A DNA stretch of 64,000 nt from the IMG/VR virus record IMGVR_UViG_3300031998_000031, positions 46,940 through 110,939 of that record; one strand, given 5' to 3'. The position numbers were made by a program, and so were the translations under genes. Shown here in pieces: positions 2,329 through 42,763 of this stretch. Below the pieces are notes generated by a model that made no database searches, had not been told where the DNA came from, and saw only the letters and a list, made by a program, of their open reading frames with translations. Every line of letters begins with the position of its first letter. The first letter of the stretch is position 1. The stretch comes from a virus. Lineage: Duplodnaviria > Caudoviricetes.

Positions 2329-2331
2329 TCT

Positions 2332-3180: not shown

Positions 3181-3217
3181 TGGCACGTTATTGTAAAAAG
3201 ATTAAGGAGGATAAACA

Positions 3218-3646
3218 ATGGGCTTTATTATTCCTGTAAATTCGCCAGTCCTCTCCGTAAAAAGGGGCGGTACAGGCAACACTTCTGTGGATACTGCGCC
3301 TACATCAGGAAGCAGCAGGATGGTGACGAGCGGCGGTGTGTACACGGCGCTTAATGGTAAACAAAATACGCTCACGTTTGATGAAGCGCCGACTGCTGGC
3401 AGCAACAACCCGGTCAAGTCGGGCGGCGTAAAAACGGCGCTTGACGGAAAAGCCAATTCGGCGCACACTCACTCGGCGACCGATATTGGGTCTGGTATAT
3501 TGCAAGGCCAAGTGACGGCAAATGATGCGGCGCAGCAGCAGACTCAGATTGCTCAATTGAGAAACATCAGTATGGGGACTACGAGTTATATTCCGGGCAC
3601 TACGAACATGGCCAACGGCCAGATTTACATCCAGTATATTCTTTAA
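3218..3646 (+). CDS. Short tail fibre protein
   Basis: Two 'D.APT.GS...V.SGGV.TAL.GK' repeats, 'HTHSATDI', ends 'GQIYIQY'. Confidence 0.65.
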   Translation: MGFIIPVNSPVLSVKRGGTGNTSVDTAPTSGSSRMVTSGGVYTALNGKQNTLTFDEAPTAGSNNPVKSGGVKTALDGKANSAHTHSATDIGSGILQGQVTANDAAQQQTQIAQLRNISMGTTSYIPGTTNMANGQIYIQYIL

Positions 3647-3658
3647 GGAGGCGGACAA

Positions 3659-4915: not shown

Positions 4916-5008
4916 GCGAGATAGCCAAGGTCTATTCACACATTTACACGCTTTTACACTATTATTCATCTGTTAAACGTTTTATAGTTATAATAAGGAT
5001 ATCCCAGT

Positions 5009-5063
5009 TTAAAGAGGCTTGCCGGTTTCTTACTACTCACTCCTTTTCCGGCAAGCTCTTTAA
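5009..5063 (+). promoter_or_regulatory. Long hairpin with pyrimidine-rich loop between a TATAAT box (4989-4994) and the RBS of the next gene
   Basis: TTAAAGAG(G)CTTGCCGG / CCGGCAAGCTCTTTAA inverted repeat; loop contains CTCCT. Confidence 0.55.
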
Positions 5064-5081
5064 TTTGTATAGGAGAGTCGC

Positions 5082-7028: not shown

Positions 7029-7036
7029 AGTTTCTG

Positions 7037-7192
7037 ATGGCAAACGTTCTTTTTGAAGAAAACAGTTTGAGCGCGATAGCCTCTGCGATACGTGCAAAGA
7101 ACGGGCTTTCGACTACATATAGGCCGTCAGAGATGGCTGCTGCCATTACTGCGATTCCAAGCGGTGGCGGCGATGTAACGATAGAGCTATAA
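7037..7192 (+). CDS. 51-aa fibre module protein (AIASAIRAK..TY.PSEMA family), absent from ORF track
   Basis: MANVLFEENSLSAIASAIRAKNGLSTTYRPSEMAAAITAIPSGGGDVTIEL; homologous to N-termini of 18435 and 19013. Confidence 0.7.
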   Translation: MANVLFEENSLSAIASAIRAKNGLSTTYRPSEMAAAITAIPSGGGDVTIEL

Positions 7193-7223
7193 GGGCCATA
7201 CATAAAACAAAAAGGAGCTTTTT

Positions 7224-9989
7224 ATGGGTACATCAGATGTAGTAAGGGTCACATATGGCGGCTCTCTGATATACGTGGCGGGCGCAGATACGCAGTTCAA
7301 ACTGGATACTGCCAATAAGCGCTTGACTGAAGATGTCATCGTTAACGTCGGATATGCCGAAGATACGCATGACGCGACCATGGACGATGCCGCGCAGCTG
7401 CTATCTGGCATTACTGCTTACGCTGGCGGCTCCAAGTATACAGGTACACTTCAGGACTATACCGGCTCGATAAACGGTGGAGAAGGCTACATCCCGTACT
7501 ACAGCGGTGCGTACTATATCGAGCCTACGAGCGAGATTCAGTCGATTTCCACGTCCGGCATGTTTATGTCCAGTGACATGACCATCGGACGCGGTGCGCA
7601 GCCGTCCGGGACGCTTTCAATCCGCGCAAACGGCACGTACGATGTTACGGACTACGCGAGCGCAGCGGTCTTGGTGTCTGGCTCAGAGTATTCCTTCGGG
7701 ACCATCCCGGCTTTATCTTCCACGCCGTCTTCGCTTGTAGATTCAGGCGTAAATATCGGATATAATGCCGCCGATAGTGATTATTATTTAGCGGTCTCCT
7801 CATTGAATCTGGCAGGAAAATCAGCCTATGGATTCTATTACAAGGCGGTAGGCAGTACGTATTATACTTTTTGCGTAGTATCAGACGAGAATCCTTCACC
7901 TGTTTATTACCAAGAAGTTATCGGTGGCACCGCAAGGGGCGTTGGTGCCAAGCAATGTAGTTATGATTCGCAGAACTATCTGTTCTACGCTTCGGGGATT
8001 GGACAGATACGCGATGAATACGTCAATTCGGCATTCCCGGTCTTTGTTGCCCAAACGCAAGAGGAGGCATTAGCGTCGGGGTTCGCGGCTTACCGCGAAT
8101 TCATGAATAACACCGCAGAGAGATATTTTGAGGTGTTGATGGGCAACAAGTCCGGCAGTGTCGTATTTTCCGGGAGCGCGATACGGACGTATGCGGCATA
8201 CTATGACGCTAACATAACTGCTATTGACGCAAGCTATGCTAAGACTGTAGGGACCGCCGCGTTTTCAAACTGTTATAGCCTATGTGAAGCTAATATCCCA
8301 GTTTGCAGCCAGATTGCCGCGTATGCGTTTTATGGCTGTAGAGAGCTTTCAAGTTTAAATTGCCCAGCCGTTCAAGAGATTGGCGATTTTGCGTTTTGCG
8401 CATGTTACGCATTGAGTGCCATAAGTCTTCCAAGCTGCACAGCTATTGGAAAAGCGGCATTTGCATCCTGCACCAGCCTTGCGGATATATATATGCCCAT
8501 GGTTTCCAGTATAGCGAACGCTAATCAATCGACCAGCGGTGCTTTTTACAGTGTGGCACTTACAAGTGTTGACCTTCCCGCATGTTCGTATATAGGAAAC
8601 TATGCTTTTTGCAAGGGTCGTTCTCTTGTGAGCGTACGCGCTTCAGCATGTTCTGTGATTGGAAACTGCGCATTTCAAAGCTGTTCACTTTTAACTGATG
8701 TATATATGCCCAGTTGTGTGTCTGTGGGGATTTTTGCATTCGCGTATTGCTCTTCACTCCAGAGCATCGATTTACCTGTGTGTGCATCGGTGGCAGCGGG
8801 GGCGTTTTCGGTTTGCTCAAGGCTTGTAAGCGTAAGTATCCCGCAGTGTTCTTACGTGGGCGATAATGCGTTCGCCAATTGTTCCGCGCTCCAATCCATA
8901 GAGCTTTCCCTTTGTTCAAGACTCCTTGCTGGGGCCTTCTATAATTGTCGCTCGCTTCAGGATGTATCCATACCTTTAGTGAGGTCGATTGGACAAAGCG
9001 CATTCTGGAGCGACGCAGCCTTGTCTCGCATCGAGGCTCCTCTTTGCAATACGCTTGATTTTTTTGCATTCACGTATTGCTCAATGCTTGAATATGTAAG
9101 CATGCCTGAGCTTCTGGCTACATCCAGCGGGACTAATTGGAGTACTGGCGCGTTCGCATCGACCGGCATATCGAGCGTTGAATTTCCTGCTTTGATGAAA
9201 GTAAATGCCTACACATTTGCTTCATGCAAGAGTTTGCAGCAGATATCTTTGCAGTGCTGTGACGCTATTATGGGAAGTTGTGCATTTCAGTCCTGTACAT
9301 CACTTGAGAGCGTGTATCTATTTGGAAATAGCGTGGCTTCGCTGTCAGCAGTGAACGCGTTTGCCAGTACGCCGATGTCTCTGAGTTCTTATCTCGGCCA
9401 CTTTGGCTCGATATTCGTTCCGTCAGATGTATATGCCTCCTATTTGACTGCTCAATACTGGTCGACATATTCATCGCGGCTGGTATCGTGCCCGGTAACT
9501 TACGGGAGCAACATAAGCCCGTTCGACGGGGAGGTCACCTTAGAGAATCCTCGCAACGTCACGCTTGTGTCGGCATCTTCTACGGATAATGTCTGGAATA
9601 TATCGCTCTCGGTCGTTACACAGAGCAGTGAGCATGAGGGCGTCAGCATTCCCTTGACCAATAACAGAGAGTCTGGCAAGTGGTATCGTCTGGACTTTGA
9701 CGTATTGATACCATCGGGGACGTCGATAAATGCAAATGCGAACAGACCAATCTTGGCCATCATTGCCCATAGTATTACCACCCAAGGTAATACCGCTTAT
9801 TATCAAAGCCCTGTTTATGCGACAGATACCTTTACGGCAGGGACGCCGAAGCACTATAGTCTTACCGTAAGCGGTGACGCGGATAAGAGCCTGATTCTTT
9901 ATCTTGCCGGTATAGCAGATGGTCAGACCAAGACCATCGAGATTACCAACATAACCATGTACGAGAAGACGGTAACATTACCGTCGTAA
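7224..9989 (+). CDS. BspA/TpLRR leucine-rich-repeat protein 1 with fibre-type N-terminal modules and an extra C-terminal domain
   Basis: 921 aa; many ~22-aa 'L..I.LP.C..IG..AF..C' repeats; cap 'GSIFVPS....Y.TA.YW'. Confidence 0.85.
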   Translation: MGTSDVVRVTYGGSLIYVAGADTQFKLDTANKRLTEDVIVNVGYAEDTHDATMDDAAQLLSGITAYAGGSKYTGTLQDYTGSINGGEGYIPYYSGAYYIEPTSEIQSISTSGMFMSSDMTIGRGAQPSGTLSIRANGTYDVTDYASAAVLVSGSEYSFGTIPALSSTPSSLVDSGVNIGYNAADSDYYLAVSSLNLAGKSAYGFYYKAVGSTYYTFCVVSDENPSPVYYQEVIGGTARGVGAKQCSYDSQNYLFYASGIGQIRDEYVNSAFPVFVAQTQEEALASGFAAYREFMNNTAERYFEVLMGNKSGSVVFSGSAIRTYAAYYDANITAIDASYAKTVGTAAFSNCYSLCEANIPVCSQIAAYAFYGCRELSSLNCPAVQEIGDFAFCACYALSAISLPSCTAIGKAAFASCTSLADIYMPMVSSIANANQSTSGAFYSVALTSVDLPACSYIGNYAFCKGRSLVSVRASACSVIGNCAFQSCSLLTDVYMPSCVSVGIFAFAYCSSLQSIDLPVCASVAAGAFSVCSRLVSVSIPQCSYVGDNAFANCSALQSIELSLCSRLLAGAFYNCRSLQDVSIPLVRSIGQSAFWSDAALSRIEAPLCNTLDFFAFTYCSMLEYVSMPELLATSSGTNWSTGAFASTGISSVEFPALMKVNAYTFASCKSLQQISLQCCDAIMGSCAFQSCTSLESVYLFGNSVASLSAVNAFASTPMSLSSYLGHFGSIFVPSDVYASYLTAQYWSTYSSRLVSCPVTYGSNISPFDGEVTLENPRNVTLVSASSTDNVWNISLSVVTQSSEHEGVSIPLTNNRESGKWYRLDFDVLIPSGTSINANANRPILAIIAHSITTQGNTAYYQSPVYATDTFTAGTPKHYSLTVSGDADKSLILYLAGIADGQTKTIEITNITMYEKTVTLPS

Positions 9990-10001
9990 CGGTGGAGCAT
10001 C

Positions 10002-10478
10002 ATGATTAGAGGCAATACTATAACCATAATAAGCAGCGGCATTACGCCATCTGGCAGCCTGAGCATCACGGAGAACGGGGCGTATGATGTAATGTCATAC
10101 GCCAGCGCGATAGTAAGCGTTCCGGGCATAGATACGTCGGACGCCACGCTGTCGTCCGGGTGGCAGATGCTGTCCGGCATTACGGCTTATGCCAGCGGTA
10201 TAAAATACACTGGTACGTTGGAAGACTACATGGGGTCCGTAAACAGCGGCTCTTGGAGCGCTCCGATTTACTCTGGCTCATACAGGATAACGCCGACGGA
10301 TGCGACGCAATCTTTCCCGACGGCGGGAATGTTTATGACCTACGACCTGATAGTGAATCCGGCGCAGGGCACGGCGCTGAAGACCCACGAGGATTCCGTA
10401 TTCGACTTTAACGAATGGACGAGGGGCAATGCGTCCGCCTTTTGGCCTAATACTACTGTTGGCGAGCTTACTGTTTAG
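10002..10478 (+). CDS. Fibre-module protein without LRRs
   Basis: Contains 'GSLSITENG.YDV..YAS', 'DATLSSG.QMLSGITAYASG.KYTG' and 'YSGSY.ITP....Q' modules. Confidence 0.7.
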   Translation: MIRGNTITIISSGITPSGSLSITENGAYDVMSYASAIVSVPGIDTSDATLSSGWQMLSGITAYASGIKYTGTLEDYMGSVNSGSWSAPIYSGSYRITPTDATQSFPTAGMFMTYDLIVNPAQGTALKTHEDSVFDFNEWTRGNASAFWPNTTVGELTV

Positions 10479-10489
10479 GAGGGTGAGAT

Positions 10490-11833
10490 ATGGTAACAAG
10501 GAATTTTAAGGCTTTATTGGGAAGAGCATTGTGTGTAGTGTCTTCTTACCCAAGTGGTTCTGAGAATAATAATAAATTTCGAACCAGTTTGCTTGTACAT
10601 GATATATACAATGGGGCATATTATCTCGTCTCTGTTTCCGCGAGCGGCGTGCAGTCGTTTCCCGGACAAGTGGTAAATGCTGTGAATGTCGGTGGCAATT
10701 ACGAAACCAACGGCATCTGGTTGGGTACAGGCAACCGTACGCCCTCCGAGGATGATTATGATTTGCAAAGCACTATTACAGCTGGCATTTCAGCGTCCGT
10801 ATCGGATGTCGTTCCGGGTCTCGATGAAGACGGCGACCCTTGCCTTACTTATACGATAGCTGTAACTAATACTGGGAGCGATAGCATTACTATATCTGAA
10901 GTCGGATACAGACAGAATGCTGCATGTTCGGTTATAAAGGACGTTGAGGCTACAACCAGTGTGATACGGATGGGTAGGCCCTTGTTGTTAGACCGAACCG
11001 TTTTAGAATCTCCCCTAACATTAGCCTCTAACGGAGATGCAGGGAGTATTATTTATACACTCAAAACTGCGATTAACGGTGCGAGAACAGTTAATGGCGT
11101 CAAGATTGTTAGCTGGGAATCCGGGTCCGACGAAGATGTTGCTGCCATGATTGATGCAGCTCAGCAAGGACTAATAAACCTTCAAACCGATGGCGGATGG
11201 CAGCTTGGGATGCAGAGATGGATACATTTAAACGCTTGGGAAGGAGCGAAAAACTCCCACGAAGCTGAGGATTTAGTTGTTGTTATATCAAGTTTTGATG
11301 ACTATAATAACTGCGGCGCAGTGATGCAGTTCGACTTTTGCATACTGCCATATTTAGCTGAGCACATGAACTCAACAAACACAAACACCGGGGGGTATGG
11401 TGCATCTGTCATGTATACTACAACTCTTCCGGCTATGGTAAACGCACTGCCCTCTTGGCTGTCTTCAAGACTGAAGACTTTTTCGGTTCTTGCGTCTGCG
11501 GGTTCTGATAGCTCTGAAATAGCCACTGTCGCAAATAATAAATTAGCCTTGCGAAGTGAAGTGGAGATATTTAATACAACAAGCAGTTCATACCCCGGAG
11601 AAGGCTCTCAAATTGCTTTATTTTCTTCTGTGGTTGCTGCGAGCAGGGTTTCTTTGGGGCGTCTTAGGAGCTGTAAGATTTATCTGACTGCATCTGCGCT
11701 TGGCTCGATGTATTGGCTGCGGTCCCCGTCGCGCAGTTCTGTTCGTTTTGCGGTTGGTAATGCTGATGGCCTTTCGTCGCTGGCGTATGGCGCATCAAGC
11801 AGCTACTACGTCGCCCCCTTCGGCTGTTTATAG
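10490..11833 (+). CDS. Putative receptor-binding protein with DUF6273-like C-terminal domain
   Basis: 'MNSTNTNTGGY..S.M....LP', 'L.L.SEVEIF', 'YWLRSP...VAPFGCL' C-terminus. Confidence 0.65.
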   Translation: MVTRNFKALLGRALCVVSSYPSGSENNNKFRTSLLVHDIYNGAYYLVSVSASGVQSFPGQVVNAVNVGGNYETNGIWLGTGNRTPSEDDYDLQSTITAGISASVSDVVPGLDEDGDPCLTYTIAVTNTGSDSITISEVGYRQNAACSVIKDVEATTSVIRMGRPLLLDRTVLESPLTLASNGDAGSIIYTLKTAINGARTVNGVKIVSWESGSDEDVAAMIDAAQQGLINLQTDGGWQLGMQRWIHLNAWEGAKNSHEAEDLVVVISSFDDYNNCGAVMQFDFCILPYLAEHMNSTNTNTGGYGASVMYTTTLPAMVNALPSWLSSRLKTFSVLASAGSDSSEIATVANNKLALRSEVEIFNTTSSSYPGEGSQIALFSSVVAASRVSLGRLRSCKIYLTASALGSMYWLRSPSRSSVRFAVGNADGLSSLAYGASSSYYVAPFGCL

Positions 11834-11842
11834 GTATATCCC

Positions 11843-12916
11843 ATGAGCATATCAGATATAGTAAAGGTCGCTTACAGCGGCTCTGTGATATACCGAGCTG
11901 GCGGCAACAGCAGTTTTACGCTGAATACATCGCATCGCCTGCTGAAGAGCGACATCGAGTTTGAAGTCGGCAATGCGACCGATACGACAGACGCCACGCT
12001 GTCCAGCTCGATGCAGATGCTGTCTGCGGTCACCGCATACGCGAACGATGTAAAGTATACCGGCGCGATAGGGACGTATTTGGGAGCGACCAATACCGGC
12101 GCGGCGATTCCGTATTACACGGGGACGTATAGCGTTACGCCAGCTGGTGTCCAGCAGACGTTCGCGACTGCCGGGAAATACTTGTCGCAGGATGTGGTGA
12201 TAGGCGCGTACTCTTCAATCGGACCGTCGGACCAGTATTTTAGGATTCTTGAAAGGATTGACTCTGGGAGCATAGTATACGGCGGTAGCACCGTAAGGCC
12301 CTACTTAGCCTTTCAATGCGATACGCTAACCGGTTTTCAGGGGGATAATGTTACCGAGATTGGCACAAGCGCATTTGATGGATGCCGGTCATTATTTTCT
12401 GTCAGTTTTCCAAGTTGCAGGACTATTGCAGCCTATGCGTTCCATGCTTGCTTCATAAGCTCGATATCTTTTCCCGCCTGTACGAATGTTTCGAATTATG
12501 CTTTTGAGTATTGTATGTCTCTTGAGTCTGCATCATTACCTGCCTGCACAGCTCTTGGATACTACGCATTTAATGGATGCTACAAGCTATCTTCAATATC
12601 GTTGCCTGTTTGCGTGCATGTATCGAACTATGCGTTTGCAAGCTGCTATGCGCTATCGACTATCGCGCTTCCATCATGCGCTTCCATTGGGGCATACGTG
12701 TTTAGCCGCTGTTATAGTTTAGTGTCGCTAAATCTCTTGGGGTCAAGCATTTGTGTGCTTTCCAACTCAAACGCTTTTTATTCAACGCCTATTGCGGGTT
12801 ATACCGCGTCAACGGGTGGCGTTTACGGTTCTATCTATGTTCCTGCGAGCTTGCTTGCATCCTATCAAGCAGCGACCAATTGGTCTTACTTTAGCTCTCG
12901 CTTCGTAGGCGTATAA
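11843..12916 (+). CDS. BspA/TpLRR protein 2
   Basis: Shared N-terminal modules, Cys-rich LRRs, cap GSIYVPASLLASYQAATNWSYFSSRFVGV. Confidence 0.85.
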   Translation: MSISDIVKVAYSGSVIYRAGGNSSFTLNTSHRLLKSDIEFEVGNATDTTDATLSSSMQMLSAVTAYANDVKYTGAIGTYLGATNTGAAIPYYTGTYSVTPAGVQQTFATAGKYLSQDVVIGAYSSIGPSDQYFRILERIDSGSIVYGGSTVRPYLAFQCDTLTGFQGDNVTEIGTSAFDGCRSLFSVSFPSCRTIAAYAFHACFISSISFPACTNVSNYAFEYCMSLESASLPACTALGYYAFNGCYKLSSISLPVCVHVSNYAFASCYALSTIALPSCASIGAYVFSRCYSLVSLNLLGSSICVLSNSNAFYSTPIAGYTASTGGVYGSIYVPASLLASYQAATNWSYFSSRFVGV

Positions 12917-12925
12917 GGAGAAGTA

Positions 12926-14182
12926 ATGGGTTTGTCAGATGTTGTAATAATCAAATACGGCGGTTCGACGATTCACGAGGCTGGATGCAACAGTAATTTT
13001 ACTCTTAAAACGGCTCAGAAGTGGCTTTCGGATGATATTTTGGTAGAGGTCGGAAATGTTATAGATACTTCCGACGCCACTTTGATGAGCGGCGGACAGA
13101 TGCTGTCCGCCGTTACAGCTTATGCCAGCGGAGTAAAGTATACCGGCACCATCGAATCCTACTCAGGCTTGGTTAACGGTTCGCAGTATGACCGTCCGTA
13201 TTATTCAGGGGAATATAACATCACTCCGATGGCAACGGCACAAAGGCTGTCTACCGCCGGAAAGATACTGTCTGAGGACGTTGTAGTAAATGCTGTCGAG
13301 GTGGACCTATATTTTAACATCATGGCTGGTGCTTCTTATGGAAGCGTGGTGTTTTCATCTGCATATTTGCCCAGCCACTTTGCTGAGAGCTGCGTTACAC
13401 TTACTGGATTTCGGGCGGATAATGTTTCGTCTGTTTATTCTGATACATTTCGGAATTGCTTTAATCTTGAGATTGTTAGTATTCCGAATTGCAATTACAT
13501 TGACTGCAACGCGTTTGCTTATTGTTCCGCGCTTTCGTCGGTCGACGTCCCAGCCAATAGAATTGGGTCCAACGCATTTTTGAGTTGTACGGCTCTTAAA
13601 AGTGTTAACTATCCGCACTGTACCATGATATCTTCTTGGGCATTTTGTGGATGTACTGCCCTTGAGGCGGTATCGTTCCCTGAGTGCGTGAGCATACAAG
13701 GAGGCGCATTTTCAGAGGCTGGCCTCAAGGAGGCCTCTTTTCCTTCGTGCACAGCAGTTGAGTCGTCTGCGTTTACGAGCTGTACATCTCTTAGCCTGAT
13801 ATCTTTCCCAAATTGCTTAAGGGTAAACGGAGACGCTTTCAAGCGCTGCTCGGCTTTAACGTCTGTGCATCTCCCCAAGTGCGTGGAAATTGACCAAGGG
13901 ACCTTTTTTATGTGTAGCCTGCTCTCCACGCTTTCGCTTCCGGCAGCTGGGAGGATAAGTAATTACGCTTTCCAAGGATGTTATAGGTTGTTGTCTTTGT
14001 ATCTAATGGCATCGTACGTTTGTCGTATAGATGTCGGAACATTTGCGAGCACGCCAATTGCTGGCGTAACGACATATACCGGCGGGGTGTACGGAAGTGT
14101 TTATGTCCCCGCAAGTTTATTGGCCTCATATAAGGCAAATGGCAGTTGGGCAGCTTTTAGCGACCGCTTAGTAGGTATTTAA
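12926..14182 (+). CDS. BspA/TpLRR protein 3
   Basis: Same architecture; ends GSVYVPASLLASYKANGSWAAFSDRLVGI. Confidence 0.85.
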   Translation: MGLSDVVIIKYGGSTIHEAGCNSNFTLKTAQKWLSDDILVEVGNVIDTSDATLMSGGQMLSAVTAYASGVKYTGTIESYSGLVNGSQYDRPYYSGEYNITPMATAQRLSTAGKILSEDVVVNAVEVDLYFNIMAGASYGSVVFSSAYLPSHFAESCVTLTGFRADNVSSVYSDTFRNCFNLEIVSIPNCNYIDCNAFAYCSALSSVDVPANRIGSNAFLSCTALKSVNYPHCTMISSWAFCGCTALEAVSFPECVSIQGGAFSEAGLKEASFPSCTAVESSAFTSCTSLSLISFPNCLRVNGDAFKRCSALTSVHLPKCVEIDQGTFFMCSLLSTLSLPAAGRISNYAFQGCYRLLSLYLMASYVCRIDVGTFASTPIAGVTTYTGGVYGSVYVPASLLASYKANGSWAAFSDRLVGI

Positions 14183-14192
14183 GGAGGCTCAA

Positions 14193-15749
14193 ATGAGCGT
14201 ATCGGATATCGTAAAAGTCAAATATAACGGCTCGGTCATCCACGTTGCTGGAGCTTCGAGTACGTTCACCATGAATACCTCAAGCAGGCGGCTTATCGGT
14301 GATATAGTCGTGGAGGTCGCCTCTGTATCTGGTACGGGGTCCCTCATATCCAAGTCCATCGTATCCAACGGCGTATACACTGCTGCAAGCGAGGGCGCAG
14401 ACGGTTATTCTGTCGTAACGGTCAGTTTGCCACCAGCTACCCTGATTTCGAAGTCGATTACCGCTAACGGGACCTATTCCGCATCAGATGAGAGTGCGGA
14501 CGGCTACTCTGTCGTGACAGTCAGCTTGCCCTCATTCGCGGGACCGTATTCTTTCGCGCCATCCACAACGGTGCAGACGTTCGCGACCGCAGGCCTGTTG
14601 ATGCAGTCCAATGTAACTATCGCGTCCTACACTCCGGGCACCGATACCACTGACGCGACCTTATCCTCCGGTGCTCAGATGCTCTCAGGCATCACAGCAT
14701 ATGCAAGCGGGGTAAAGTACACCGGCACCATCGAAGAGTATGCAGGCATGGTAAACAGCAGCCACGATAATATCCCGTATTATAGCGGGAGCGTAAATGG
14801 TGGTGCGCCTGATGTGCCCACTTATAGCGGGACCTATTACGCCACTCCATCCAATACGGAGCAGACGTTCCCGACTGCCGGACTTTTGATGAGTTCTGAT
14901 TTTACGGTCGCTTCGGTGGCGAGCGGCGGGATAATCCCGACCGGGACCATAAGTATCACCGAGAACGGCATATATGATATATCGCAGTACGCAAGCGCTA
15001 ACGTAAGCGTTCCGAGCGGGATTACACCTACGGGAACGCTGAGCATAAATGCGAATGGGATATACACCGTAACAGATTATGCAAGTGTTGATGTAAGCGT
15101 TCCCGGCGTGGTTCCTGTGGGAACAAAGGTCATCACGTCCAACGGAAATTATGATGTATCGAGCTTTGCGAGTGCTACTGTAAACGTCACAAGCAACAAC
15201 GACGCATTTAAGTCAATGGTCGAAGGAACGCTGACGGCTGCAACGGGTTCAACGGTATCTACTATCCGTTCAAATGCTTTTGCGGGTGCCCAGACGCTGA
15301 CACTTGTAAGTTTTCCTTCCTGCACAAACGTAGGGGCAGGGGCGTTCTATGACTGCACGCAACTTGTGTCAGTTTATCTTCCGTCTTGTATTAGCGTTAG
15401 TACGCAAGCTTTTGAGGGTTGCTCAGCTCTATCTGATGTTGAGTTACAATCTTGCCGTACAATTGATAGATACGCATTTATGGAATGCAGTAATCTGTCA
15501 ACTTTAACGATTGACGGAAGGTACATTTGGGATTCGGCGTTCCATCTATGCAAAAAACTACAGTCTCTGTATCTGACATACGACAGCTGCGGGACGCTTT
15601 ATGCGAGCAATGCGTTTAAATCAACCCCAATTACGGATTCCTCTTATACGGGTACTTTCGGCAGCATCTATGTACCAGCAAGTCTTTTAGCCTCATACAA
15701 GGCTGCAAATAACTGGTCTTACTTCAGTGATAGATTCGTAGGAGTTTAG
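14193..15749 (+). CDS. BspA/TpLRR protein 4 with expanded stalk modules
   Basis: Two 'LISKSI..NG.Y.A....ADGYS' and three 'GT..I..NG.YDV..YAS' modules, then LRRs and FVGV end. Confidence 0.85.
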   Translation: MSVSDIVKVKYNGSVIHVAGASSTFTMNTSSRRLIGDIVVEVASVSGTGSLISKSIVSNGVYTAASEGADGYSVVTVSLPPATLISKSITANGTYSASDESADGYSVVTVSLPSFAGPYSFAPSTTVQTFATAGLLMQSNVTIASYTPGTDTTDATLSSGAQMLSGITAYASGVKYTGTIEEYAGMVNSSHDNIPYYSGSVNGGAPDVPTYSGTYYATPSNTEQTFPTAGLLMSSDFTVASVASGGIIPTGTISITENGIYDISQYASANVSVPSGITPTGTLSINANGIYTVTDYASVDVSVPGVVPVGTKVITSNGNYDVSSFASATVNVTSNNDAFKSMVEGTLTAATGSTVSTIRSNAFAGAQTLTLVSFPSCTNVGAGAFYDCTQLVSVYLPSCISVSTQAFEGCSALSDVELQSCRTIDRYAFMECSNLSTLTIDGRYIWDSAFHLCKKLQSLYLTYDSCGTLYASNAFKSTPITDSSYTGTFGSIYVPASLLASYKAANNWSYFSDRFVGV

Positions 15750-15751
15750 AT

Positions 15752-16549
15752 ATGAGTTTAGTAAACGTAGCCTATAACGGCTCAATGATTTATACGGGCG
15801 ATAGTGACTTCACCCTTAATACCAAAGATACTTGGCTCGAAGGCAATATAGGGGTACAAGTGTCTGTGCCTACATATTCGGGCTCATACTCTGCTACTCC
15901 GACCAATGCTGAACAGACATTTCCCACGGCAGGGATGCTTATGGAAAGCGATTTTACTGTTGGCGCAGCGAGTGGAGGAAGTGATGATAATTTCAAAATA
16001 GCTATGGGTGCAATGAGCGGGAGTATATATGACGCGGACACCGTTTCTGTTCCCTCGTATGCTTTTAATTATAGGTCAAATCTATTTGGCGTTGAAATGC
16101 TGAACTGTATTTCCATCGGAGAGTATGCTTTTGCCAGCTGCCAATCCCTATCTTTTATAAGTTTTCCAAGATGTGCTTCTATATGCAACTACGCGTTTTA
16201 TGGTTGTATCGCTTTAACTGGAGTTATCTTTCCTGAGTGCGTACGTATAGAGGCCTATGCATTTAATTACTGTAATAATTTAAGTACTGCCATTTTTCAA
16301 AAATGCCGGTATATAGGTTCCTCAGCATTTTATAACTGCACGGCATTAAAAAGTCTGTACTTACTTGGGTCTTCTGTAATAGCACCTTCGGACATGCACA
16401 CGGATGCGTTTTATAATACGCCAATATCTAAGTCTACATACTTAGGAGAGTTTGGCTCGATTTATGTCCCTGCGTCTCTCGTAGGTGAGTATAAAGCCAC
16501 AAGAGGTTGGAGCGTATATTCAAATCGCATAACCGCTTATACTGGATAA
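15752..16549 (+). CDS. BspA/TpLRR protein 5 (short)
   Basis: N-terminal module, few LRRs, GSIYVPASL cap. Confidence 0.85.
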   Translation: MSLVNVAYNGSMIYTGDSDFTLNTKDTWLEGNIGVQVSVPTYSGSYSATPTNAEQTFPTAGMLMESDFTVGAASGGSDDNFKIAMGAMSGSIYDADTVSVPSYAFNYRSNLFGVEMLNCISIGEYAFASCQSLSFISFPRCASICNYAFYGCIALTGVIFPECVRIEAYAFNYCNNLSTAIFQKCRYIGSSAFYNCTALKSLYLLGSSVIAPSDMHTDAFYNTPISKSTYLGEFGSIYVPASLVGEYKATRGWSVYSNRITAYTG

Positions 16550-16560
16550 GGAGGTCCTAA

Positions 16561-18273
16561 ATGAGCACATCTGATGTCGTAAAAGTCGCGTATGGCAGCT
16601 CAATAATCTACATGGCTGGAAGTAACACCAGCTTCACCCTGAATACATCGCAAAAGTACATGGAGGACGATGTATCAATTGAAGTAGGGGCGTTCCCCAC
16701 AGCGGCTCTCATTTCCAAGACCGTGGCCGCCAACGGCGTCTATTCTGCGTCGAATGACGGTGCGGACGGATACTCCGAGGTCACTGTCAGTTTGCCTTCA
16801 TATACTGGTGCGTATACGTTTACACCGGCTACATCGCCTCAGACTATCCAGACGTCGGGACTGCTTATGTCCTCAAACGTTACGATTCAAGCATATACTC
16901 CGGCTACTCTGATATCCAAGACCATCACCTCTAATGGTACCTATTCCGCCGTCAATGATGGCGCAGATGGTTATTCGAAGGTGACCGTAAGCGTCTCTGG
17001 CGGGCCTGATACATCTGACGCTACTCTGTCGAGCGGTGCTCAGATGCTCTCAGGTATTACAGCATATGCGAGTGGAGTAAAGTACACTGGCACCATCGAA
17101 GAGTATGCAGGCATAGTAAACAGTCAGGCGGGGAATATCCCATATTATTCCGGAGCGTATCTAATAAATCCATCTGCCGAAGACCAGATTATAAGTACAA
17201 ACGGGCTTGTAATGAGTTCCGATTTTACGTTTAAATCATATTCTGGGGGTGGAGGAGGAAACGATGCTGAAATTATAAATAGAACAATAACAAAAATATC
17301 TAATTCGGATGTGGTAAATGTTGGCCCATATGCATTTGCTATGTGCTCTTTATTATCTCATGTTGATTTTCCTAACGTTGAATATGTTGGACAGTCCGCG
17401 TTTGCTTATTGTTATTCTTTATCGGCTTTTAATCTTTCTAACGTTATCAGCATAGACTCATTTGCTTTTTATGAATGCCATGCACTTTTATCTGCGAGTT
17501 TTCCTAGAGTGACCTCAATTGGAATTCATGCATTTGTCGGTTGTTCTTCGTTTTCTTATGCTGACTTTCCTAATGCTATTGAGGTCGGCTCTTATGCATT
17601 TTATAGGTGCTTTTCGCTTTTAAGTGCTAACTTTCCTAAGATGGAATATGTCCCGTCAGATGGTTTTATGAATTGCTGGGCGCTTTTAGAAGTTAGTTTT
17701 CCAAAGGCGAAACTAATTGACCAGCGGGCGTTTGCTTATTGCTCATCTCTTGCAGAGGCAAACTTTTCATCTGCGATTTCAATTTTTTCTGGTGCTTTTT
17801 ATGAGTGCTCTTCTCTTTCCATTATTAGTTTTCCAGTGGTGGAATATATAGGGCCTACCGCTTTTGCCGGATGCGGAATTAAAAGTGTATACCTATCGTT
17901 AATAACTAAGCTTGAAAACGGAACGTTTGCAAGGTGCCCATCTCTATCATTAGTAGATTGCCCAAATGTTACATCAATACAATCTACAGTGTTTGCTTTG
18001 TGCTCTGGACTTTCTGCCATTAGCTTTTCAAAGCTTGTATATTTAGGGAGCAATGCCTTCAATTATTGCGCCAATCTTTTATCATTATATTTAACTGGCA
18101 GCTCCGTATGTACACTTGCTAATTCTAATGCATTTACAGCTACCCCAATAGCAGGGTCCACAGCATCCACAGAAGGAGTTTATGGTTCCATTTATGTTCC
18201 ACAAAGTTTACTTACCACATATAAAGCAGCTACTAATTGGTCGTACTTTAGTAGTCGCTTTGTCGGAGTTTAA
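16561..18273 (+). CDS. BspA/TpLRR protein 6
   Basis: 570 aa; 'FP.V..IG..AF..C' repeats; FVGV end. Confidence 0.85.
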   Translation: MSTSDVVKVAYGSSIIYMAGSNTSFTLNTSQKYMEDDVSIEVGAFPTAALISKTVAANGVYSASNDGADGYSEVTVSLPSYTGAYTFTPATSPQTIQTSGLLMSSNVTIQAYTPATLISKTITSNGTYSAVNDGADGYSKVTVSVSGGPDTSDATLSSGAQMLSGITAYASGVKYTGTIEEYAGIVNSQAGNIPYYSGAYLINPSAEDQIISTNGLVMSSDFTFKSYSGGGGGNDAEIINRTITKISNSDVVNVGPYAFAMCSLLSHVDFPNVEYVGQSAFAYCYSLSAFNLSNVISIDSFAFYECHALLSASFPRVTSIGIHAFVGCSSFSYADFPNAIEVGSYAFYRCFSLLSANFPKMEYVPSDGFMNCWALLEVSFPKAKLIDQRAFAYCSSLAEANFSSAISIFSGAFYECSSLSIISFPVVEYIGPTAFAGCGIKSVYLSLITKLENGTFARCPSLSLVDCPNVTSIQSTVFALCSGLSAISFSKLVYLGSNAFNYCANLLSLYLTGSSVCTLANSNAFTATPIAGSTASTEGVYGSIYVPQSLLTTYKAATNWSYFSSRFVGV

Positions 18274-18285
18274 GGAGATTCTAAT

Positions 18286-18435
18286 ATGGACTCAATAATA
18301 GTAACTTACAACGGAACCCCAATTCATAGTGCAAACGACAACACCACATTTACTCTTAACACTGACGACAATTATCTTGAAGGTGACGTAGTTGTGGCTG
18401 TTTCATTTCCTGATGCGGATTTGGAGGCTTACTGA
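18286..18435 (+). CDS. 49-aa protein consisting only of the LRR-family N-terminal module, absent from ORF track
   Basis: MDSIIVTYNGTPIHSANDNTTFTLNTDDNYLEGDVVVAVSFPDADLEAY; AAGGAG RBS; TGATG overlap with next gene. Confidence 0.7.
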   Translation: MDSIIVTYNGTPIHSANDNTTFTLNTDDNYLEGDVVVAVSFPDADLEAY

Positions 18436-19016
18436 TGGGCCGAGCTTTGATAACCAATTCATATTTACAAGCAATCGCAAGTGCTATTCGGACTAAATTA
18501 CAATCTCAAAATACGTATACACCATCACAAATGGCACCGGCAATTCTGAGCATACCACCTAGAAGTGAACCGGTTTTAGGCACGAAAGTTATAACTTATA
18601 ATGGTGTTTTTAATGCTTCCGACGATAATCTTGACGGATACTCAGAGGTTACGGTTTCTCGAAATCCATCTCTGCATCCAATGGCGTATGACGCTACTAA
18701 TGGATATGTAAACGGTTCAACGTTTACCATAGGCAGTGGATATTATTCAGATATTTATGAAGTGGAATCTGGCCACACATATAGAATAGAAACCGGGTCT
18801 AGTTATGGGACACTTTTTAGGGTTCTGTTTACTACAACAGACACTTCAACAGCAACATCTGTTGTTTCCGGAACTAGCGTAGCTAGTGCATCGGCTTCGT
18901 CTTCATCTTTAGCCACTTACACAGCAACTTCGAATGGCTATATTACATTTACAAAAGGGTCCGTTTCAGGGAAAAGCTCTTGCGTATTTGATGTAACTCT
19001 TGCGGAGGATTTATGA
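18435..19016 (+). CDS. Fibre-module protein (AIASAIR family) with beta-rich C-terminal domain
   Basis: 'LQAIASAIRTK...TYTPSQMA', 'DDNLDGYSEVTV'; paralog of 19013. Confidence 0.7.
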   Translation: MGRALITNSYLQAIASAIRTKLQSQNTYTPSQMAPAILSIPPRSEPVLGTKVITYNGVFNASDDNLDGYSEVTVSRNPSLHPMAYDATNGYVNGSTFTIGSGYYSDIYEVESGHTYRIETGSSYGTLFRVLFTTTDTSTATSVVSGTSVASASASSSSLATYTATSNGYITFTKGSVSGKSSCVFDVTLAEDL

Positions 19017-19615
19017 AACAGATAATAACTGAATCATATTTACAAGCAATCGCAAATGCTATAAGAAGCAAAAACGGGTTGCAAAGAACATATACTCCGC
19101 AACAAATGGCACAAGCTATACTAGATATTCCAAGCGGAAGCGGAGCTGTTCTAGTTGAAAAAACCGTTGCGCTTAAAGGAACTTATAATGCTGAAGATGA
19201 TAATGCGGATGGGTATTCTAAGATTGTAAATAATATTTCATGGAGAATGATACCGTATTCTTTCGACCTTCATCCAAACGGTTATGTTATGAGTAAAAAA
19301 TGGATGATAAATGGGTCGACTGTAAATTATTCTGATGTATATTTGGTGCAAGCAAGCCATCGGTATTTTCTAACTTTAGGTGACACTACAGGCACTAGAT
19401 ATAGAGCCATTATTGTAACAACGGACCCAACAGGACAAGACCAATCTTTAGATGCCGTTGGAGGTAAAATGATTGTTGATATTGGTGGAAATGGTCCGTC
19501 TCCGAGAGCTAGTGCAGTGTTTAGTTCAACAGTTGATGGTTATTTCGTTGTGACTAAAGACAATAGTGGCCATTCTGGTATTCCGACATATCTATTCGAC
19601 ATTACTAAATCATAG
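19013..19615 (+). CDS. Fibre-module protein, paralog of 18435
   Basis: 'LQAIANAIRSKNG..TYTPQQMA', 'DDNADGYS', shared 'YSD.Y.V...H.Y' and 'FD.T' end. Confidence 0.7.
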   Translation: MKQIITESYLQAIANAIRSKNGLQRTYTPQQMAQAILDIPSGSGAVLVEKTVALKGTYNAEDDNADGYSKIVNNISWRMIPYSFDLHPNGYVMSKKWMINGSTVNYSDVYLVQASHRYFLTLGDTTGTRYRAIIVTTDPTGQDQSLDAVGGKMIVDIGGNGPSPRASAVFSSTVDGYFVVTKDNSGHSGIPTYLFDITKS

Positions 19616-19631
19616 CAAAAGGAGGTATTAT

Positions 19632-20993
19632 ATGGGCGTGTCAGATTTTGTAAAAGTTGCTTATAATGGCTCATTAATTCATGAAGCAGGAGCGGAAAGT
19701 GTTTTTACATTAAATACTTCTAAGAAATGGCTAGCCGGAGATATAGAGGTAGAAGTTGGTTCTATTCCACTTGCTACACTTATTTCTAAATCTATAACTC
19801 AAAATGGAACATATAAAGCCGAAGATGATAGCGCGGATGGGTATTCTCAGGTAATTGTAAGCGTTGCCGGAGGCCCCGATACATCGGACGCGACCCTTTC
19901 TTCGGGTGCGCAGATGCTCTATGGTATTACAGCTTATGCAAGTGGTGTAAAATACACAGGTGCTATTCAGACATATTCTGGCTCTGTTAATGGCCAAGCC
20001 GGAAGTATTCCATTTTATTCAGGAGCTTATAACATTACTCCGTCTACAACAGAGCAGATATTATCTACATCTGGTAAAGTGATGTCTGATGATATGGTTA
20101 TTGGTTCTTATAGTAATAGTGGATTAGCAATAAGCAGCCCATTAATGCTTGTCGGTAATGCAACATCGTTGGGTTCAATTTTGGACTATAACGAGTCTCT
20201 TGAGCGTTTAATTCCGGAAATGTATTTTCCGAATGTCACGTCTATTCCAGACTGGCAATTTAATGGATACGCGTCTTTGGAAAAAATAGATTTTCCAGTA
20301 TGCAGTTCAATAGGGGCCGAGGCATTTTGTTATCTGGAATATCTTTCTGATATTTCATTTCCGATGTGCCAATATATTGGCATGTCAGCATTTTTGCAAT
20401 GCACAACTCTTCCTTATGTTAGCTTTTCTTTGTGCAGCATAATGGAGGATGATGCGTTCGCTGGGTGTAGCAGTATATCGTATGCTAGTTTTCCGGTTTG
20501 CACAAGTATTGGCATGTCAGCATTTGCGTATTGTTTGAGTTTAGCAACCATTTCATTCCCATTATTATCGGATATTGGGTCGGAGGCATTTGAGGGATGC
20601 TACAATTTAGCTTCTGTAATATTACCTAGTTGCCCATACATTCATTATGCAACGTTTAGTGAATGCTATAATATATCTTATGTATCCTTACCTATTTGCA
20701 GTTATATAGAAAGTTATGCTTTTGCATCTTGTTCTAGCTTAACTGCAATTTCGCTTCCAGCTTGTACATCGATAGAAGATTATGCCTTTAATGGCTGTGC
20801 TTCATTATCGTCATTATATTTGATGGGTTCGGAAAAATGCATTTTGGAAGATACTCAGGCATTTTATGACACATTGCTTCATTTTGAAAACGACCCTTAT
20901 ATTGGTCGCATTTATGTTCCGTCGAGTTTATTAACGGCATATAAAACCGATAGTATATGGTCGTATTATGAAAGTGGATTTGTCGGAGTATAG
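19632..20993 (+). CDS. BspA/TpLRR protein 7
   Basis: Start moved to ATG 19632 behind AGGAGG (MGVSDFVKVAYNGS); LRRs; FVGV end. Confidence 0.85.
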   Translation: MGVSDFVKVAYNGSLIHEAGAESVFTLNTSKKWLAGDIEVEVGSIPLATLISKSITQNGTYKAEDDSADGYSQVIVSVAGGPDTSDATLSSGAQMLYGITAYASGVKYTGAIQTYSGSVNGQAGSIPFYSGAYNITPSTTEQILSTSGKVMSDDMVIGSYSNSGLAISSPLMLVGNATSLGSILDYNESLERLIPEMYFPNVTSIPDWQFNGYASLEKIDFPVCSSIGAEAFCYLEYLSDISFPMCQYIGMSAFLQCTTLPYVSFSLCSIMEDDAFAGCSSISYASFPVCTSIGMSAFAYCLSLATISFPLLSDIGSEAFEGCYNLASVILPSCPYIHYATFSECYNISYVSLPICSYIESYAFASCSSLTAISLPACTSIEDYAFNGCASLSSLYLMGSEKCILEDTQAFYDTLLHFENDPYIGRIYVPSSLLTAYKTDSIWSYYESGFVGV

Positions 20994-21025
20994 ATATTTT
21001 CATATTTTTTAGCAGGAGGTAAACT

Positions 21026-42749: not shown

Positions 42750-42763
42750 GGTGGCTATACTGT

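Follow-up and report, generated by a model that had tools for sequence, protein, structure and literature searches.

An uncultured myovirus with a contractile tail, whose complete genome of 110.9 kb (~111 kb) contains the 64,000-nucleotide window analyzed here (all coordinates refer to this window), carries a tandem set of seven paralogous genes coding for proteins with LRR_5-type leucine-rich repeat (LRR) heads. We consider it probable that these are accessory virion receptor-binding proteins, which share an N-terminal docking module and direct their LRR heads at the host surface, with their most likely role being that of alternative host-recognition fibers. This reading draws on the position of the genes in the tail region, the LRR_5 heads, the lack of an export signal, the conservation pattern of the individual parts, the occurrence of the same modules elsewhere, and the neighboring genes in the cluster, which are likewise of fiber or binding-head types (the DUF6273-like and N′-C-head proteins; Table 1). 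From gene order we infer that the seven proteins are incorporated into the virion.

The array lies 3′ of the sheath, tape-measure, hub, wedge, and tail-fiber genes, in agreement with the tail-module location given in the preliminary description, and farther 5′ the genome codes for the major head, terminator, sheath, tube, chaperone, tape-measure, hub, and wedge components. The gp6/J-like wedge gene marks the boundary where the core baseplate genes stop. The PHROG matches of the block that follows it include phrog_587, phrog_7037, and phrog_1780; within this block the genes starting at 3218 and 5082 share a fiber-type motif in pairwise BLAST, and the latter is additionally matched by phrog_15594 and phrog_21765. 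All of the array and upstream tail genes are on a single strand, the array genes are separated by 9–13 nt, and nearly every one of them is preceded by an AGGAGG-type Shine-Dalgarno (SD) site. The seven reading frames are all present at the starts originally proposed, the seventh being best begun at ATG 19632, which is preceded by the SD site AAAGGAGG; given this site, an upstream GTG (19566) was rejected as its start. The characterization of the region as a 14-kb tandem array of seven genes is correct for the LRR genes themselves but incomplete, as the cluster additionally contains four non-LRR fiber-like genes and two stand-alone N-type mini-genes.

Table 1. Features of the tail-fiber cluster and its flanks.
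Feature	Coordinates	Strand	Basis
Baseplate wedge protein (gp6/J-like)	235..1716	+	phrog_6 'baseplate wedge subunit', E 2.1e-40
Baseplate protein	1735-2328	+	Baseplate/tail-fiber PHROG matches in 1735..7028 block
Tail fiber N-terminal protein (g2332)	2332-3180	+	PHROG matches in 1735..7028 block
Fiber-like gene	3218-3646	+	PHROG matches in 1735..7028 block
Fiber-like gene	3659-4915	+	PHROG matches in 1735..7028 block
Fiber-like gene	5082-7028	+	PHROG matches in 1735..7028 block
51-aa mini-ORF, N′ module alone	7037..7192	+	N′ module HMM, E 1.6e-14
LRR paralog 1 (g7224), 921 aa	7224..9989	+	LRR_5 E 2.3e-52; module HMMs
Shaft-only protein, 158 aa, no head: third N-terminal type (MI.GN..), then D-A-B	10002..10478	+	Module HMMs
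447-aa DUF6273-like (C-type-lectin-like) candidate receptor-binding head	10490..11833	+	ESM Atlas
LRR paralog 2 (g11843), 357 aa: N-A-B, 6 LRR units, cap	11843..12916	+	LRR_5 E 1.4e-31
LRR paralog 3 (g12926), 418 aa: N-A-B, 9 LRR units, cap	12926..14182	+	LRR_5 E 8.5e-49
LRR paralog 4 (g14193), 518 aa: N-C-C-B-A-B-D-D-D, 5 LRR units, cap	14193..15749	+	LRR_5 E 8.5e-19
LRR paralog 5 (g15752), 265 aa: shortened N, B, 5 LRR units, cap with divergent end	15752..16549	+	LRR_5 E 7.7e-20
LRR paralog 6 (g16561), 570 aa: N-C-B-C-A-B, 12 LRR units, cap	16561..18273	+	LRR_5 E 2e-69
49-aa mini-ORF, N module alone	18286..18435	+	N module HMM, E 1.9e-13
Small fiber-like paralog: N′-C + ~120-aa non-LRR head	18435-19016	+	N′ + C HMM matches; phrog_29123
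Small fiber-like paralog: N′-C + ~120-aa non-LRR head	19013-19615	+	N′ + C HMM matches; phrog_29123
LRR paralog 7 (g19632), 453 aa: N-C-A-B, 9 LRR units, cap	19632..20993	+	LRR_5 E 1.5e-34
Family 2 glycosyltransferase (GT2)	21026..22105	+	PF00535 E 1.5e-7, 31.9 bits vs cut-off 23.3

The seven proteins follow a common plan, in which an N module of ~44 aa precedes short shaft modules in shuffled order, LRR repeats, and a C-terminal cap. We labeled the shaft modules A (DTSDAT...KYTG), B (PxYSGxY..TP..Q..TxG), C (LISK..NG.Y.A..DGYS), and D (P.G...I..NG.YDV..YAS). The single plan earlier ascribed to all seven holds inasmuch as the modules are present and alignable, with the exception of g15752, whose N module is shortened and which has no A module. 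The longest protein, g7224, displays an N-A-B-D arrangement followed by ~170 aa without a module assignment, ~15 LRR units containing two insert loops, then the cap and an additional C-terminal domain (residues 778–915), which is modeled by AF2 as all-β (pLDDT 50–75) and is CBM_4_9-like by ESM features (score 0.93), a resemblance that we treat as a lead only.

The preliminary description took the heads for BspA/TpLRR repeats and suggested an LRR_5 profile search and monomer structure prediction; the profile, AF2, and Foldseek concur on this assignment. All seven proteins score above the gathering threshold of Pfam LRR_5 (PF13306; 68–232 bits vs a cut-off of 27.7; E from 8.5e-19 to 2e-69), with a total of 61 units, 5–15 per protein, repeating with a period of 22 aa and conforming to the consensus PxCxxIGxxAFxxCxxLxx[VI]x[LF]. 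A cysteine occupies position 14 in 53 of the 61 units and position 3 in 34, the first cysteine of the repeat being mostly missing from the units of g16561. AF2 models the repeats of g11843 and g7224 and the cap with pLDDT >90 (N-A-B of g11843 <65; N module of g7224 70–77). Among solved folds, those of LRR_5 surface proteins from gut bacteria, of PcpA, and of TpLRR come closest: the best Foldseek matches of g11843 are 4gt6, 4fd0, 4fs7, 4cp6, and 6mlx (probability 1.0), and g16561 recovers 4fs7 (2.7e-27) and TpLRR 6mlx (5.8e-16) in PDB sequence searches. Thus, by profile and predicted structure, the heads are BspA/TpLRR-type solenoids. The cap had been listed as a conserved element of the set and is indeed present; however, because it is also found in 82 of 116 foreign homologs, it is a family-wide feature of this LRR_5 subfamily rather than peculiar to the source phage.

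The bacterial surface proteins of the BspA/TpLRR/PcpA type (4fs7, 4gt6, 4fd0, 4cp6, 6mlx) thereby share the repeat type, fold, and C-terminal cap with the phage proteins, but the latter are without a secretion signal or a cell-wall, lipid, or T9SS anchor, have an N-terminal half made of phage shaft modules, and in six of the seven paralogs show a second cysteine per repeat (PxC). A crude hydropathy script, used in place of a dedicated predictor, found no signal-peptide-like or membrane segment in the seven proteins (hydropathy maximum over 12-aa stretches of the ~40 N-terminal residues, ≤1.24), and their N-termini are phage modules in lieu of the export and surface-anchoring elements of BspA-like adhesins. 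It is highly improbable that the proteins are non-structural and have their function inside the infected or lysogenic cell or at its surface, e.g., by serving as conversion adhesins or by binding host or defense proteins intracellularly: while many intracellular systems use LRR domains for sensing and binding, and an LRR_5 gene of one annotated Lachnospiraceae phage sits among replication genes rather than tail genes (hence, LRR_5 in a phage does not by itself imply a tail protein), the genes described here are embedded in a late tail operon, encode nothing that would display their products on the cell surface (signal peptide, lipobox, or anchor), and have N-terminal halves built from modules common to tail-region proteins of many phages.

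In pairwise BLAST the N-terminal parts of the paralogs match one another at E-values down to 4e-30 and are hence alike far above chance. The N module is 53–68% identical among the paralogs, as against 34–49% to the best foreign N module (40–60 own vs 34–38 foreign bits); for the A-B shaft the best own and best foreign matches are about equal; and for the head plus cap the best foreign match equals or exceeds the best paralog match in all seven proteins (177 vs 133 bits for g11843), with the heads not being monophyletic in a tree of 130 sequences. Given that the N module is closest within the phage and the shafts and heads are mosaic with those of foreign phages, the pattern, as read from sequence comparison, fits one phage-specific docking piece with exchangeable heads, and the earlier notion of a common module bearing variable heads is sustained. 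AF2 folds N-A-B as a monomer with low to moderate confidence (pLDDT 53–77 for the N module, <50 for A), and a comparison of N-A-B with solved structures returned no match.

A comparable arrangement of receptor-binding genes in a row after the baseplate genes is seen in branched systems with multiple receptor-binding proteins (RBPs), viz., TSP1-4 of Ackermannviridae such as CBA120 and the two-to-many depolymerase RBPs of Klebsiella phages; in these, assembly depends on N-terminal parts that are conserved inside one phage, and the distal parts are exchanged between phages and set the host range (PMC11414711, PMC7506556, PMC6872550, PMC13352976). The division into an N-terminal part conserved within the phage and exchangeable distal parts recurs here; however, our system has LRR solenoids in place of trimeric β-helix tailspikes with enzyme activity, an N module of only ~44 aa that matched no solved anchor domain, and probably a gut or rumen anaerobe rather than an enterobacterium as its host. 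The DUF7941 proteins of the Goslar gp86/gp92/gp161 type from chimalliviruses similarly have an N-terminal assembly module common to several paralogs, which is coupled to carbohydrate-binding, hydrolase, or LRR/β-helix domains in a proposed host-recognition 'fiber cloud' (bioRxiv 10.64898/2026.04.21.720040). They differ in being dispersed in the genome rather than forming one tandem block; we saw no sequence relation between the N modules, and Pfam gives only LRR families in our seven proteins.

Searches with an N-A-B profile covering the shaft modules recovered 766 matching representatives of 50%-identity clusters, some with recognized tail-fiber N-terminal domains; the best 89 of these include 23 with LRR_5, four with DUF285, two with Phage_tail_C, and one with Phage_tail_fib. 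The DAT...KYTG module thus recurs in other phage tail-region proteins, as was surmised at the outset. In the foreign loci such genes occur 3′ of tape-measure and distal-tail genes, with one copy (L043) adjoining a holin, and in another phage the N module heads a discoidin (F5/8 type C) protein that adjoins an LRR fiber gene. In uncultured phages, tail-region proteins with LRR_5 heads, deposited under names such as 'Leucine-rich repeat protein [Siphoviridae sp. ct...]', agree with the present set in head and cap (≤62% identity in the ~150 C-terminal aa), shaft modules, and genomic place, and an ESM Atlas cluster joins DUF6273 and LRR_5, but the N-terminal types of these proteins are mostly different. 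Each foreign locus examined has one or two LRR_5-headed genes as opposed to seven in the source phage, and no INPHARED record has more than three matching places. LRR_5-headed fiber proteins are widely found among uncultured phages, most often singly or in pairs at a locus; with its seven genes, the source phage has an unusually large set of a widespread, little-studied type rather than a unique invention.

The remaining genes of the cluster are of related kinds. The shaft-only protein has the same N-terminal start as two foreign proteins (P0020 and P0024), and phrog_38337 matches both it and the tail-fiber N-terminal protein g2332. The DUF6273-like protein gave nothing at threshold in a Pfam search, but its top ESM Atlas match (score 0.98) is a viral cluster with DUF6273 in 50% of its members, and its structural neighbors combine DUF6273 with Collagen, Big_3, Mtd_N, or LRR_5 domains. 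The two small N′-C proteins are 38% identical (BLAST E 1.8e-38), with their Pfam search giving no family. As for the mini-genes, the first encodes an N′ module (..AIRxK..Y.PSEMA.AI..) that is 59% identical to both the N-terminus of g19013 and the foreign protein P0012, and inspection of its upstream sequence found no clear SD; the second has a GGAG 8 nt upstream, a TGA overlapping the ATG of the next gene, and 61% identity to a 56-aa N protein that stands alone in another phage (L006:10947-11117), vs 40–49% to the N modules of the seven LRR paralogs.

The presence of a DUF6273-like neighbor, and the combination of an anchor, small β modules, and a binding head, also recall the tentaclins and Mtd-like DUF6273 targets of diversity-generating retroelements (DGRs) in gut phages (PMC10743442, PMC11792537); however, those heads are C-type lectins rather than LRRs, and the diversity here resides in seven fixed, intact, separately translated genes without a reverse transcriptase or template repeat. 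There is no sign of a DGR: the complete genome has no RVT_1 match, the 3′ end of the DUF6273-like gene is not repeated elsewhere, and the array has no near-identical repeats. Phase-variable RBP expression via homopolymer slippage or invertible segments finds no counterpart either, with no invertase, no A/T run of ≥8 or G/C run of ≥7 within 6900–21200, and a single weak pair of inverted repeats amid genes on one strand. The LRR fold is used by jawless vertebrates for antigen receptors; the likeness to a variable-receptor repertoire drawn in the preliminary description is nevertheless a loose one, since there are seven complete genes with their own starts, nearly all with a clear SD, in place of lamprey VLR-type somatic assembly or any diversifying machinery.

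Between copies the DNA identity is mostly 60–75%, reaching 60–86% in short blocks only; the A modules are 62–73% identical except for one pair at 86%, which suggests an exchange between g14193 and g16561. This pair, the shuffled module order, the heads as near to foreign genes as to one another, and the two stand-alone N-type stubs resembling leftovers of cassette replacement would also be expected if one or a few of the seven were used and the others were redundant copies or a stock of cassettes for heads and shafts, kept because new fibers arise when they recombine with one another and with other phages. We nevertheless regard this as quite unlikely, as all seven frames are intact and nearly all have strong SD sites, the general inter-copy identity is too low for frequent homologous exchange, there is no invertase, notable inverted repeat, or homopolymer switch, and an N-only mini-gene is kept as such in another phage and so is not mere debris. 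A variant of the receptor-binding reading, which we hold to be unlikely, is a germline repertoire of LRR binders, wherein the seven heads, by way of their common phage-specific N module, compete for or spread over one kind of docking site, particles differ in their binders, and the stand-alone N/N′ mini-proteins act as occupancy plugs or adaptors; if true, it would offer a repertoire-based route to recognition breadth as an alternative to DGR hypermutation.

Under the favored receptor-binding interpretation, we propose that the phage-specific ~44-aa N-terminal β module might attach to the baseplate periphery or another fiber protein, and the shaft of interchangeable 30–40-aa modules would project the BspA-type solenoid, with the cap closing its C-terminal end. 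The variable solenoid surface could then bind a host cell-surface structure, and the seven unlike LRR heads, together with the DUF6273 lectin-like head and the two small non-LRR heads, would allow several receptor variants or strains to be recognized. The docking role of the N module, the oligomeric state, and the kind of target are all predicted in this scheme. Weighing on the other side, LRR solenoids are normally monomeric, so 'fiber' may be the wrong picture, and seven proteins with one docking module exceed the need of a simple six-fold site.

Alternatively, the virion proteins could bind non-receptor targets such as mucus glycans, plant fiber, biofilm matrix, or non-host cells, and so keep the phage near its hosts, a role reportedly proposed for Hoc-like Ig domains and tentaclins. 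This would suit the adhesion of bacterial BspA-type LRR proteins to host tissue and other cells, the extra all-β, possibly CBM_4_9-like domain of g7224, and the presence of conventional fiber genes (2332–7028) that could carry out infection. The same alternative has been raised for the C-lectin proteins of gut phages (PMC10743442; bioRxiv 10.1101/2024.10.15.618418). It appears doubtful for the present set in that heads differing so strongly among the seven are better suited to bacterial surfaces, which vary, than to environmental ligands, which are fairly constant, the genes are at the position of receptor-binding proteins and not among the head genes, the usual place for decoration proteins, and in some smaller phages no distal tail gene is obvious besides one with this LRR head type.

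A Gram-positive Firmicute of the gut or rumen is the probable host, a placement for which there are three clues: the strong SD sites, weak LRR matches with a Lachnospiraceae phage among them, and the occurrence of DUF6273 in Faecalibacterium phages according to published work. Directly 3′ of the array is the GT2 gene, whose tie to the array is uncertain; in the foreign loci L004, L006, L043, and L044 a GT2 gene likewise adjoins or is near an LRR fiber gene.

The window spans positions 46940-110939 of an IMG/VR virus record that is complete at 110,939 bp and carries direct terminal repeats, and the genes 5' of it code for a major head protein, tail terminator, tail sheath, tube-type protein, tail chaperone, tape measure, baseplate hub, and gp25-like wedge protein. 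Since these head, sheath, tape-measure, hub, and wedge genes, along with the baseplate and tail-fibre genes at the start of the window, precede the LRR array, the region reads as the late operon of a contractile-tailed phage. The earlier assignment of the array to the tail module is thus borne out: baseplate and tail-fibre genes directly precede it in the window, with the sheath to gp25-like wedge genes lying further upstream, and it occupies the site expected of receptor-binding genes. All genes of the array region are on the + strand, the array genes are spaced by 9-13 nt, and nearly every gene of the cluster is preceded by an AGGAGG-type ribosome-binding site. The strong Shine-Dalgarno sites, the weak LRR matches, including one from a Lachnospiraceae phage, and the publications on DUF6273 in Faecalibacterium phages (PMC11792537) together suggest that the host is probably a gut or rumen Firmicute. 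Seven clustered tRNA genes (Gln, Met, Leu, Thr, Asn, and two Ser) are found at 41292-44293 in an early or middle phage region.

Genes of the LRR array and its surroundings, with the modular architecture of the encoded proteins
Feature	Position	Strand	Length (aa)	Architecture or remark
gp6-like wedge protein	235-1716	+		opens the window
Baseplate protein	1735-2328	+		
Protein with tail-fibre N-terminal domain	2332-3180	+		
N'-only mini-ORF	7037-7192	+	51	between the 648-aa fibre-like gene (5082-7028) and the first LRR gene; no clear ribosome-binding site
g7224	from 7224	+	921	N-A-B-D-x-LRR-cap-y
C-terminal domain of g7224	9486-9986	+		residues ~755-921, after the cap
Shaft-only protein	10002-10478	+		third kind of N-terminus, then D-A-B
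Candidate DUF6273-like protein	10490-11833	+	447	grouped by the ESM Atlas with viral DUF6273 proteins (score 0.98)
g11843	from 11843	+	357	N-A-B-LRR-cap
g12926	from 12926	+	418	N-A-B-LRR-cap
g14193	from 14193	+	518	N-C-C-B-A-B-D-D-D-LRR-cap
g15752	from 15752	+	265	N(short)-B-LRR-cap
g16561	from 16561	+	570	N-C-B-C-A-B-LRR-cap
N-only mini-ORF	18286-18435	+	49	stop codon overlaps the start of the next gene
Two paralogous proteins	18435-19016 and 19013-19615	+		N'-C and a small non-LRR head
g19632	from 19632	+	453	N-C-A-B-LRR-cap
GT2 glycosyltransferase	21026-22105	+		directly after the cluster

The seven ORFs of the preliminary description are present and share the common plan attributed to them. 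All seven score above the Pfam threshold for LRR_5 (BspA-type; E values from 8.5e-19 to 2e-69), the domain itself being a full member of this family. The 61 repeat units of 22 aa cut from the seven proteins have the consensus PxCxxIGxxAFxxCxxLxx[VI]x[LF], with an invariant Phe11, a Cys14 in 53 and a Cys3 in 34 of the units, and an entropy near 3 bits at the remaining positions. Profiles built from the copies fully cover the N-terminal halves with five short module types, viz., N (44 aa), A (DTSDAT...KYTG, 40 aa), B (PxYSGxY..TP..Q..TxG, 34 aa), C (LISK..NG.Y.A..DGYS, 33 aa), and D (P.G...I..NG.YDV..YAS, 32 aa), and in the whole 111-kb genome these modules are confined to positions 7049-20105 of the window. 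The proposed N-terminal module and variable stalk modules are therefore real, but N is shortened in g15752. Likewise, the copies do carry the conserved cap, but it is not special to this phage, being conserved in the alignment with foreign homologs and present in 82 of 116 close head homologs. The first paralog, g7224, has additional regions: residues ~127-307 lack a Pfam family match or a confident AlphaFold2 model, whereas the all-β domain after the cap is modeled with low confidence, has only sub-threshold Pfam matches and, within the length range searched, no homologs. Language-model features offer a lead that this domain might lie near the CBM_4_9/galactose-binding-like domains.

The array was originally described as a 14-kb tandem series of seven; the seven LRR genes are there, but the series is not pure, the cluster also comprising four non-LRR fibre-like genes and two mini-ORFs. 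The structural neighbors of the candidate DUF6273-like protein in the ESM Atlas are DUF6273 proteins fused to Collagen, Big_3, Mtd_N, or LRR_5 domains. DUF6273 has been described as a C-type-lectin-like receptor-binding domain of gut-phage proteins (PMC10743442; bioRxiv 10.1101/2024.10.15.618418; PMC11792537). The N' module of the two paralogous proteins with small heads (..AIRxK..Y.PSEMA.AI..) is unlike N. The short ORF at 7037-7192, comprised of N' alone, could be a stub from cassette replacement or a real mini-protein. The N-only peptide shows 61% identity to a stand-alone 56-aa N protein of an unrelated phage contig, where it is encoded after the LRR fibre gene (L006:10947-11117), as against 40-49% to the N modules of the seven paralogs in the same genome, which argues that the stand-alone N protein is a conserved gene and not simply debris. 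The two mini-proteins could be adaptors, plugs, assembly factors, or leftovers. Another phage has the N module at the start of a discoidin-domain protein, encoded beside an LRR fibre gene.

AlphaFold2 models of g11843 and g7224 show an LRR solenoid with a helical cap at pLDDT above 90, while the N module is modeled with moderate confidence as a four-stranded β unit (pLDDT 53-64 in one model and 70-77 in the other), and confidence is low for the A module and for those parts of g7224 that were left unassigned. The head fold matches LRR_5 proteins of gut bacteria (4gt6, 4fd0, 4fs7), pneumococcal PcpA, and Treponema TpLRR, as well as, in BFVD, many predicted 'leucine-rich repeat' proteins from tailed phages that are uncultured; no solved structure matching the N-A-B profile was found. 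The export and anchor features that define the BspA-type bacterial adhesins are absent from the seven phage proteins, and a crude hydropathy scan picked up neither a signal-peptide-like nor a membrane segment in any of them, leading us to reject their interpretation as secreted adhesins. That they serve on the virion for adhesion to non-host material rather than for receptor binding is unlikely, though it deserves some weight.

The modules differ markedly in their divergence, with the mean pairwise identity among copies being 70% for A, 51% for N, 50% for the cap, 47% for B, and 35% for the last four repeats, where the commonality is almost only that of the scaffold. An exhaustive search of 1.84 billion representative proteins with an N-A-B profile recovered 766 proteins with these modules (representatives of 50%-identity clusters). 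Compared with the 150 best of these 766, each N module of the array is far closer to its paralogs (identity 53-68%, score 40-60 bits) than to its nearest foreign counterpart (identity 34-49%, score 34-38 bits), whereas for the A-B shafts foreign proteins and paralogs are about equally close. For the head and cap, each of the seven has a foreign match at least as good as its best paralog, with the foreign set having been retrieved partly with one paralog only. In a tree built from 130 C-terminal regions, no clade short of the whole tree contains all seven; given its short repeat alignments and a foreign set likewise retrieved partly with one paralog, we use it only as supporting evidence alongside the BLAST comparison. 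Judged from these comparisons, the proteins combine a phage-specific N module, a generic shaft vocabulary, and heterologous heads, a pattern that would arise if exchangeable distal parts shared a common docking module. As the DNA identity between copies is mostly 60-75%, with a single A-module pair (g14193/g16561) at 86%, exchange within the array appears to be old, one pair at most being a later exception.

The diversity of the array resides in fixed genes. No reverse transcriptase is encoded in the complete genome, and no template-like repeat of the 3' end of 10490-11833 occurs elsewhere in it; hence, diversification by a diversity-generating retroelement (DGR) was rejected. The DUF6273-like gene at 10490-11833 nevertheless resembles the usual DGR target of gut phages. 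No near-identical repeats, long homopolymer tracts, or invertible arrangements were detected in the array, and with neither of the latter two present we also rejected phase-variable receptor-binding proteins (RBPs) switched by homopolymers or inversion. Assembly in the manner of the lamprey-type LRR receptors was tested for the seven paralogs and found not to apply. A partly idle cassette reservoir is an unlikely explanation of the array.

We favor, with reasonable though far from complete confidence, the proposal that the seven are accessory receptor-binding proteins of the virion. The N module would dock the protein onto the virion, the shaft modules would extend the head outward, and the variable LRR surface would bind the target; the seven heads, together with the lectin-like head and the small heads of the cluster, might thereby widen the usable range of surface variants. 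A non-structural role is very unlikely; if the proteins were absent from the virion, the tail-fibre label that such genes commonly receive by automatic annotation would have to be revised. Closest in function are the branched multi-RBP complexes of the Ackermannviridae and Klebsiella phages, whose N-terminal assembly parts are conserved and distal parts exchangeable (PMC11414711, PMC7506556, PMC6872550, PMC13352976); however, the heads here are LRR solenoids rather than tailspikes with enzyme activity, and a small module unrelated to theirs is the putative anchor. A common N-terminal module is also combined, in the recently proposed DUF7941 'fibre cloud' of phage Goslar, with carbohydrate-binding, hydrolase, or LRR domains (bioRxiv 10.64898/2026.04.21.720040). 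With the above corrections, the array is real: a large tandem set of phage binding proteins from an abundant class, which varies the multi-RBP theme without amounting to a new kind of system. Little is known of how phages recognise their hosts among gut and rumen anaerobes, and LRR-headed tail proteins are abundant yet experimentally unexplored, with no experimental work on them found in the literature. The array offers a compact natural experiment, since a single complete genome devoid of a hypermutation system combines one putative docking module, a small shaft vocabulary, and seven heads that are unlike each other. Should the docking rule hold, the N module and its partner would define a plug-in site for head exchange, and the heads would be ready probes for the surface structures of uncultured Firmicutes.

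A megablast search with 20 kb against 50,697 phage records recovered no close relatives, nor did tblastn of the shaft-only protein and an N'-type protein against these records yield a match. A word-indexed search with N-A-B returned only the window's own proteins, pattern scans with the neighboring 648-aa and wedge proteins only distant or partial loci, and profile scans of genome contigs (A-B alignment) and metagenome contigs (N alignment) nothing that was confirmed. Among the top 89 foreign proteins with shaft modules, 23 contain LRR_5, four DUF285, two Phage_tail_C, and one a tail-collar fibre N-terminal domain. One head has 831 homologs at E <= 1e-10 in a word-indexed database, all unnamed metagenomic proteins; PF27094 often accompanies LRR_5 in the head homologs, and the N-termini inspected are of phage types, unlike signal peptides. 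The same number of phage records was searched with one head, and 13 of the 50,697 matched, with a maximum of three places per record. In the foreign contigs fetched, such genes follow the tape-measure and distal-tail genes, with one or two per locus, making seven per block the largest set in the small sample of loci examined. A caution comes from an annotated Lachnospiraceae phage of Ca. Heliusvirales (PV036455.1, 21389-23185), where a 598-aa LRR_5-matching gene lies among replication genes, between those for a helicase and a methyltransferase, outside the tail module. The LRR_5 genes of two large phage contigs, L015 (record G003; 49 kb, CheckV 21% complete) and L044 (134 kb), have in-frame TAG codons, one homolog being translatable only with TAG as Gln, which suggests that stop-codon-recoded phages possess the same head type. 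Near the foreign LRR fibre genes, there is a holin gene in one locus, small CBM_5_12 protein genes in three (L043, L044, L045), and a GT2 gene, as directly after the present cluster, in four (L004:14177-15178, L006:4034-5008, L043:6364-7347, L044:11416-12456); this recurrent linkage suggests a functional tie, e.g., glycosylation of the fibres or of the host wall.
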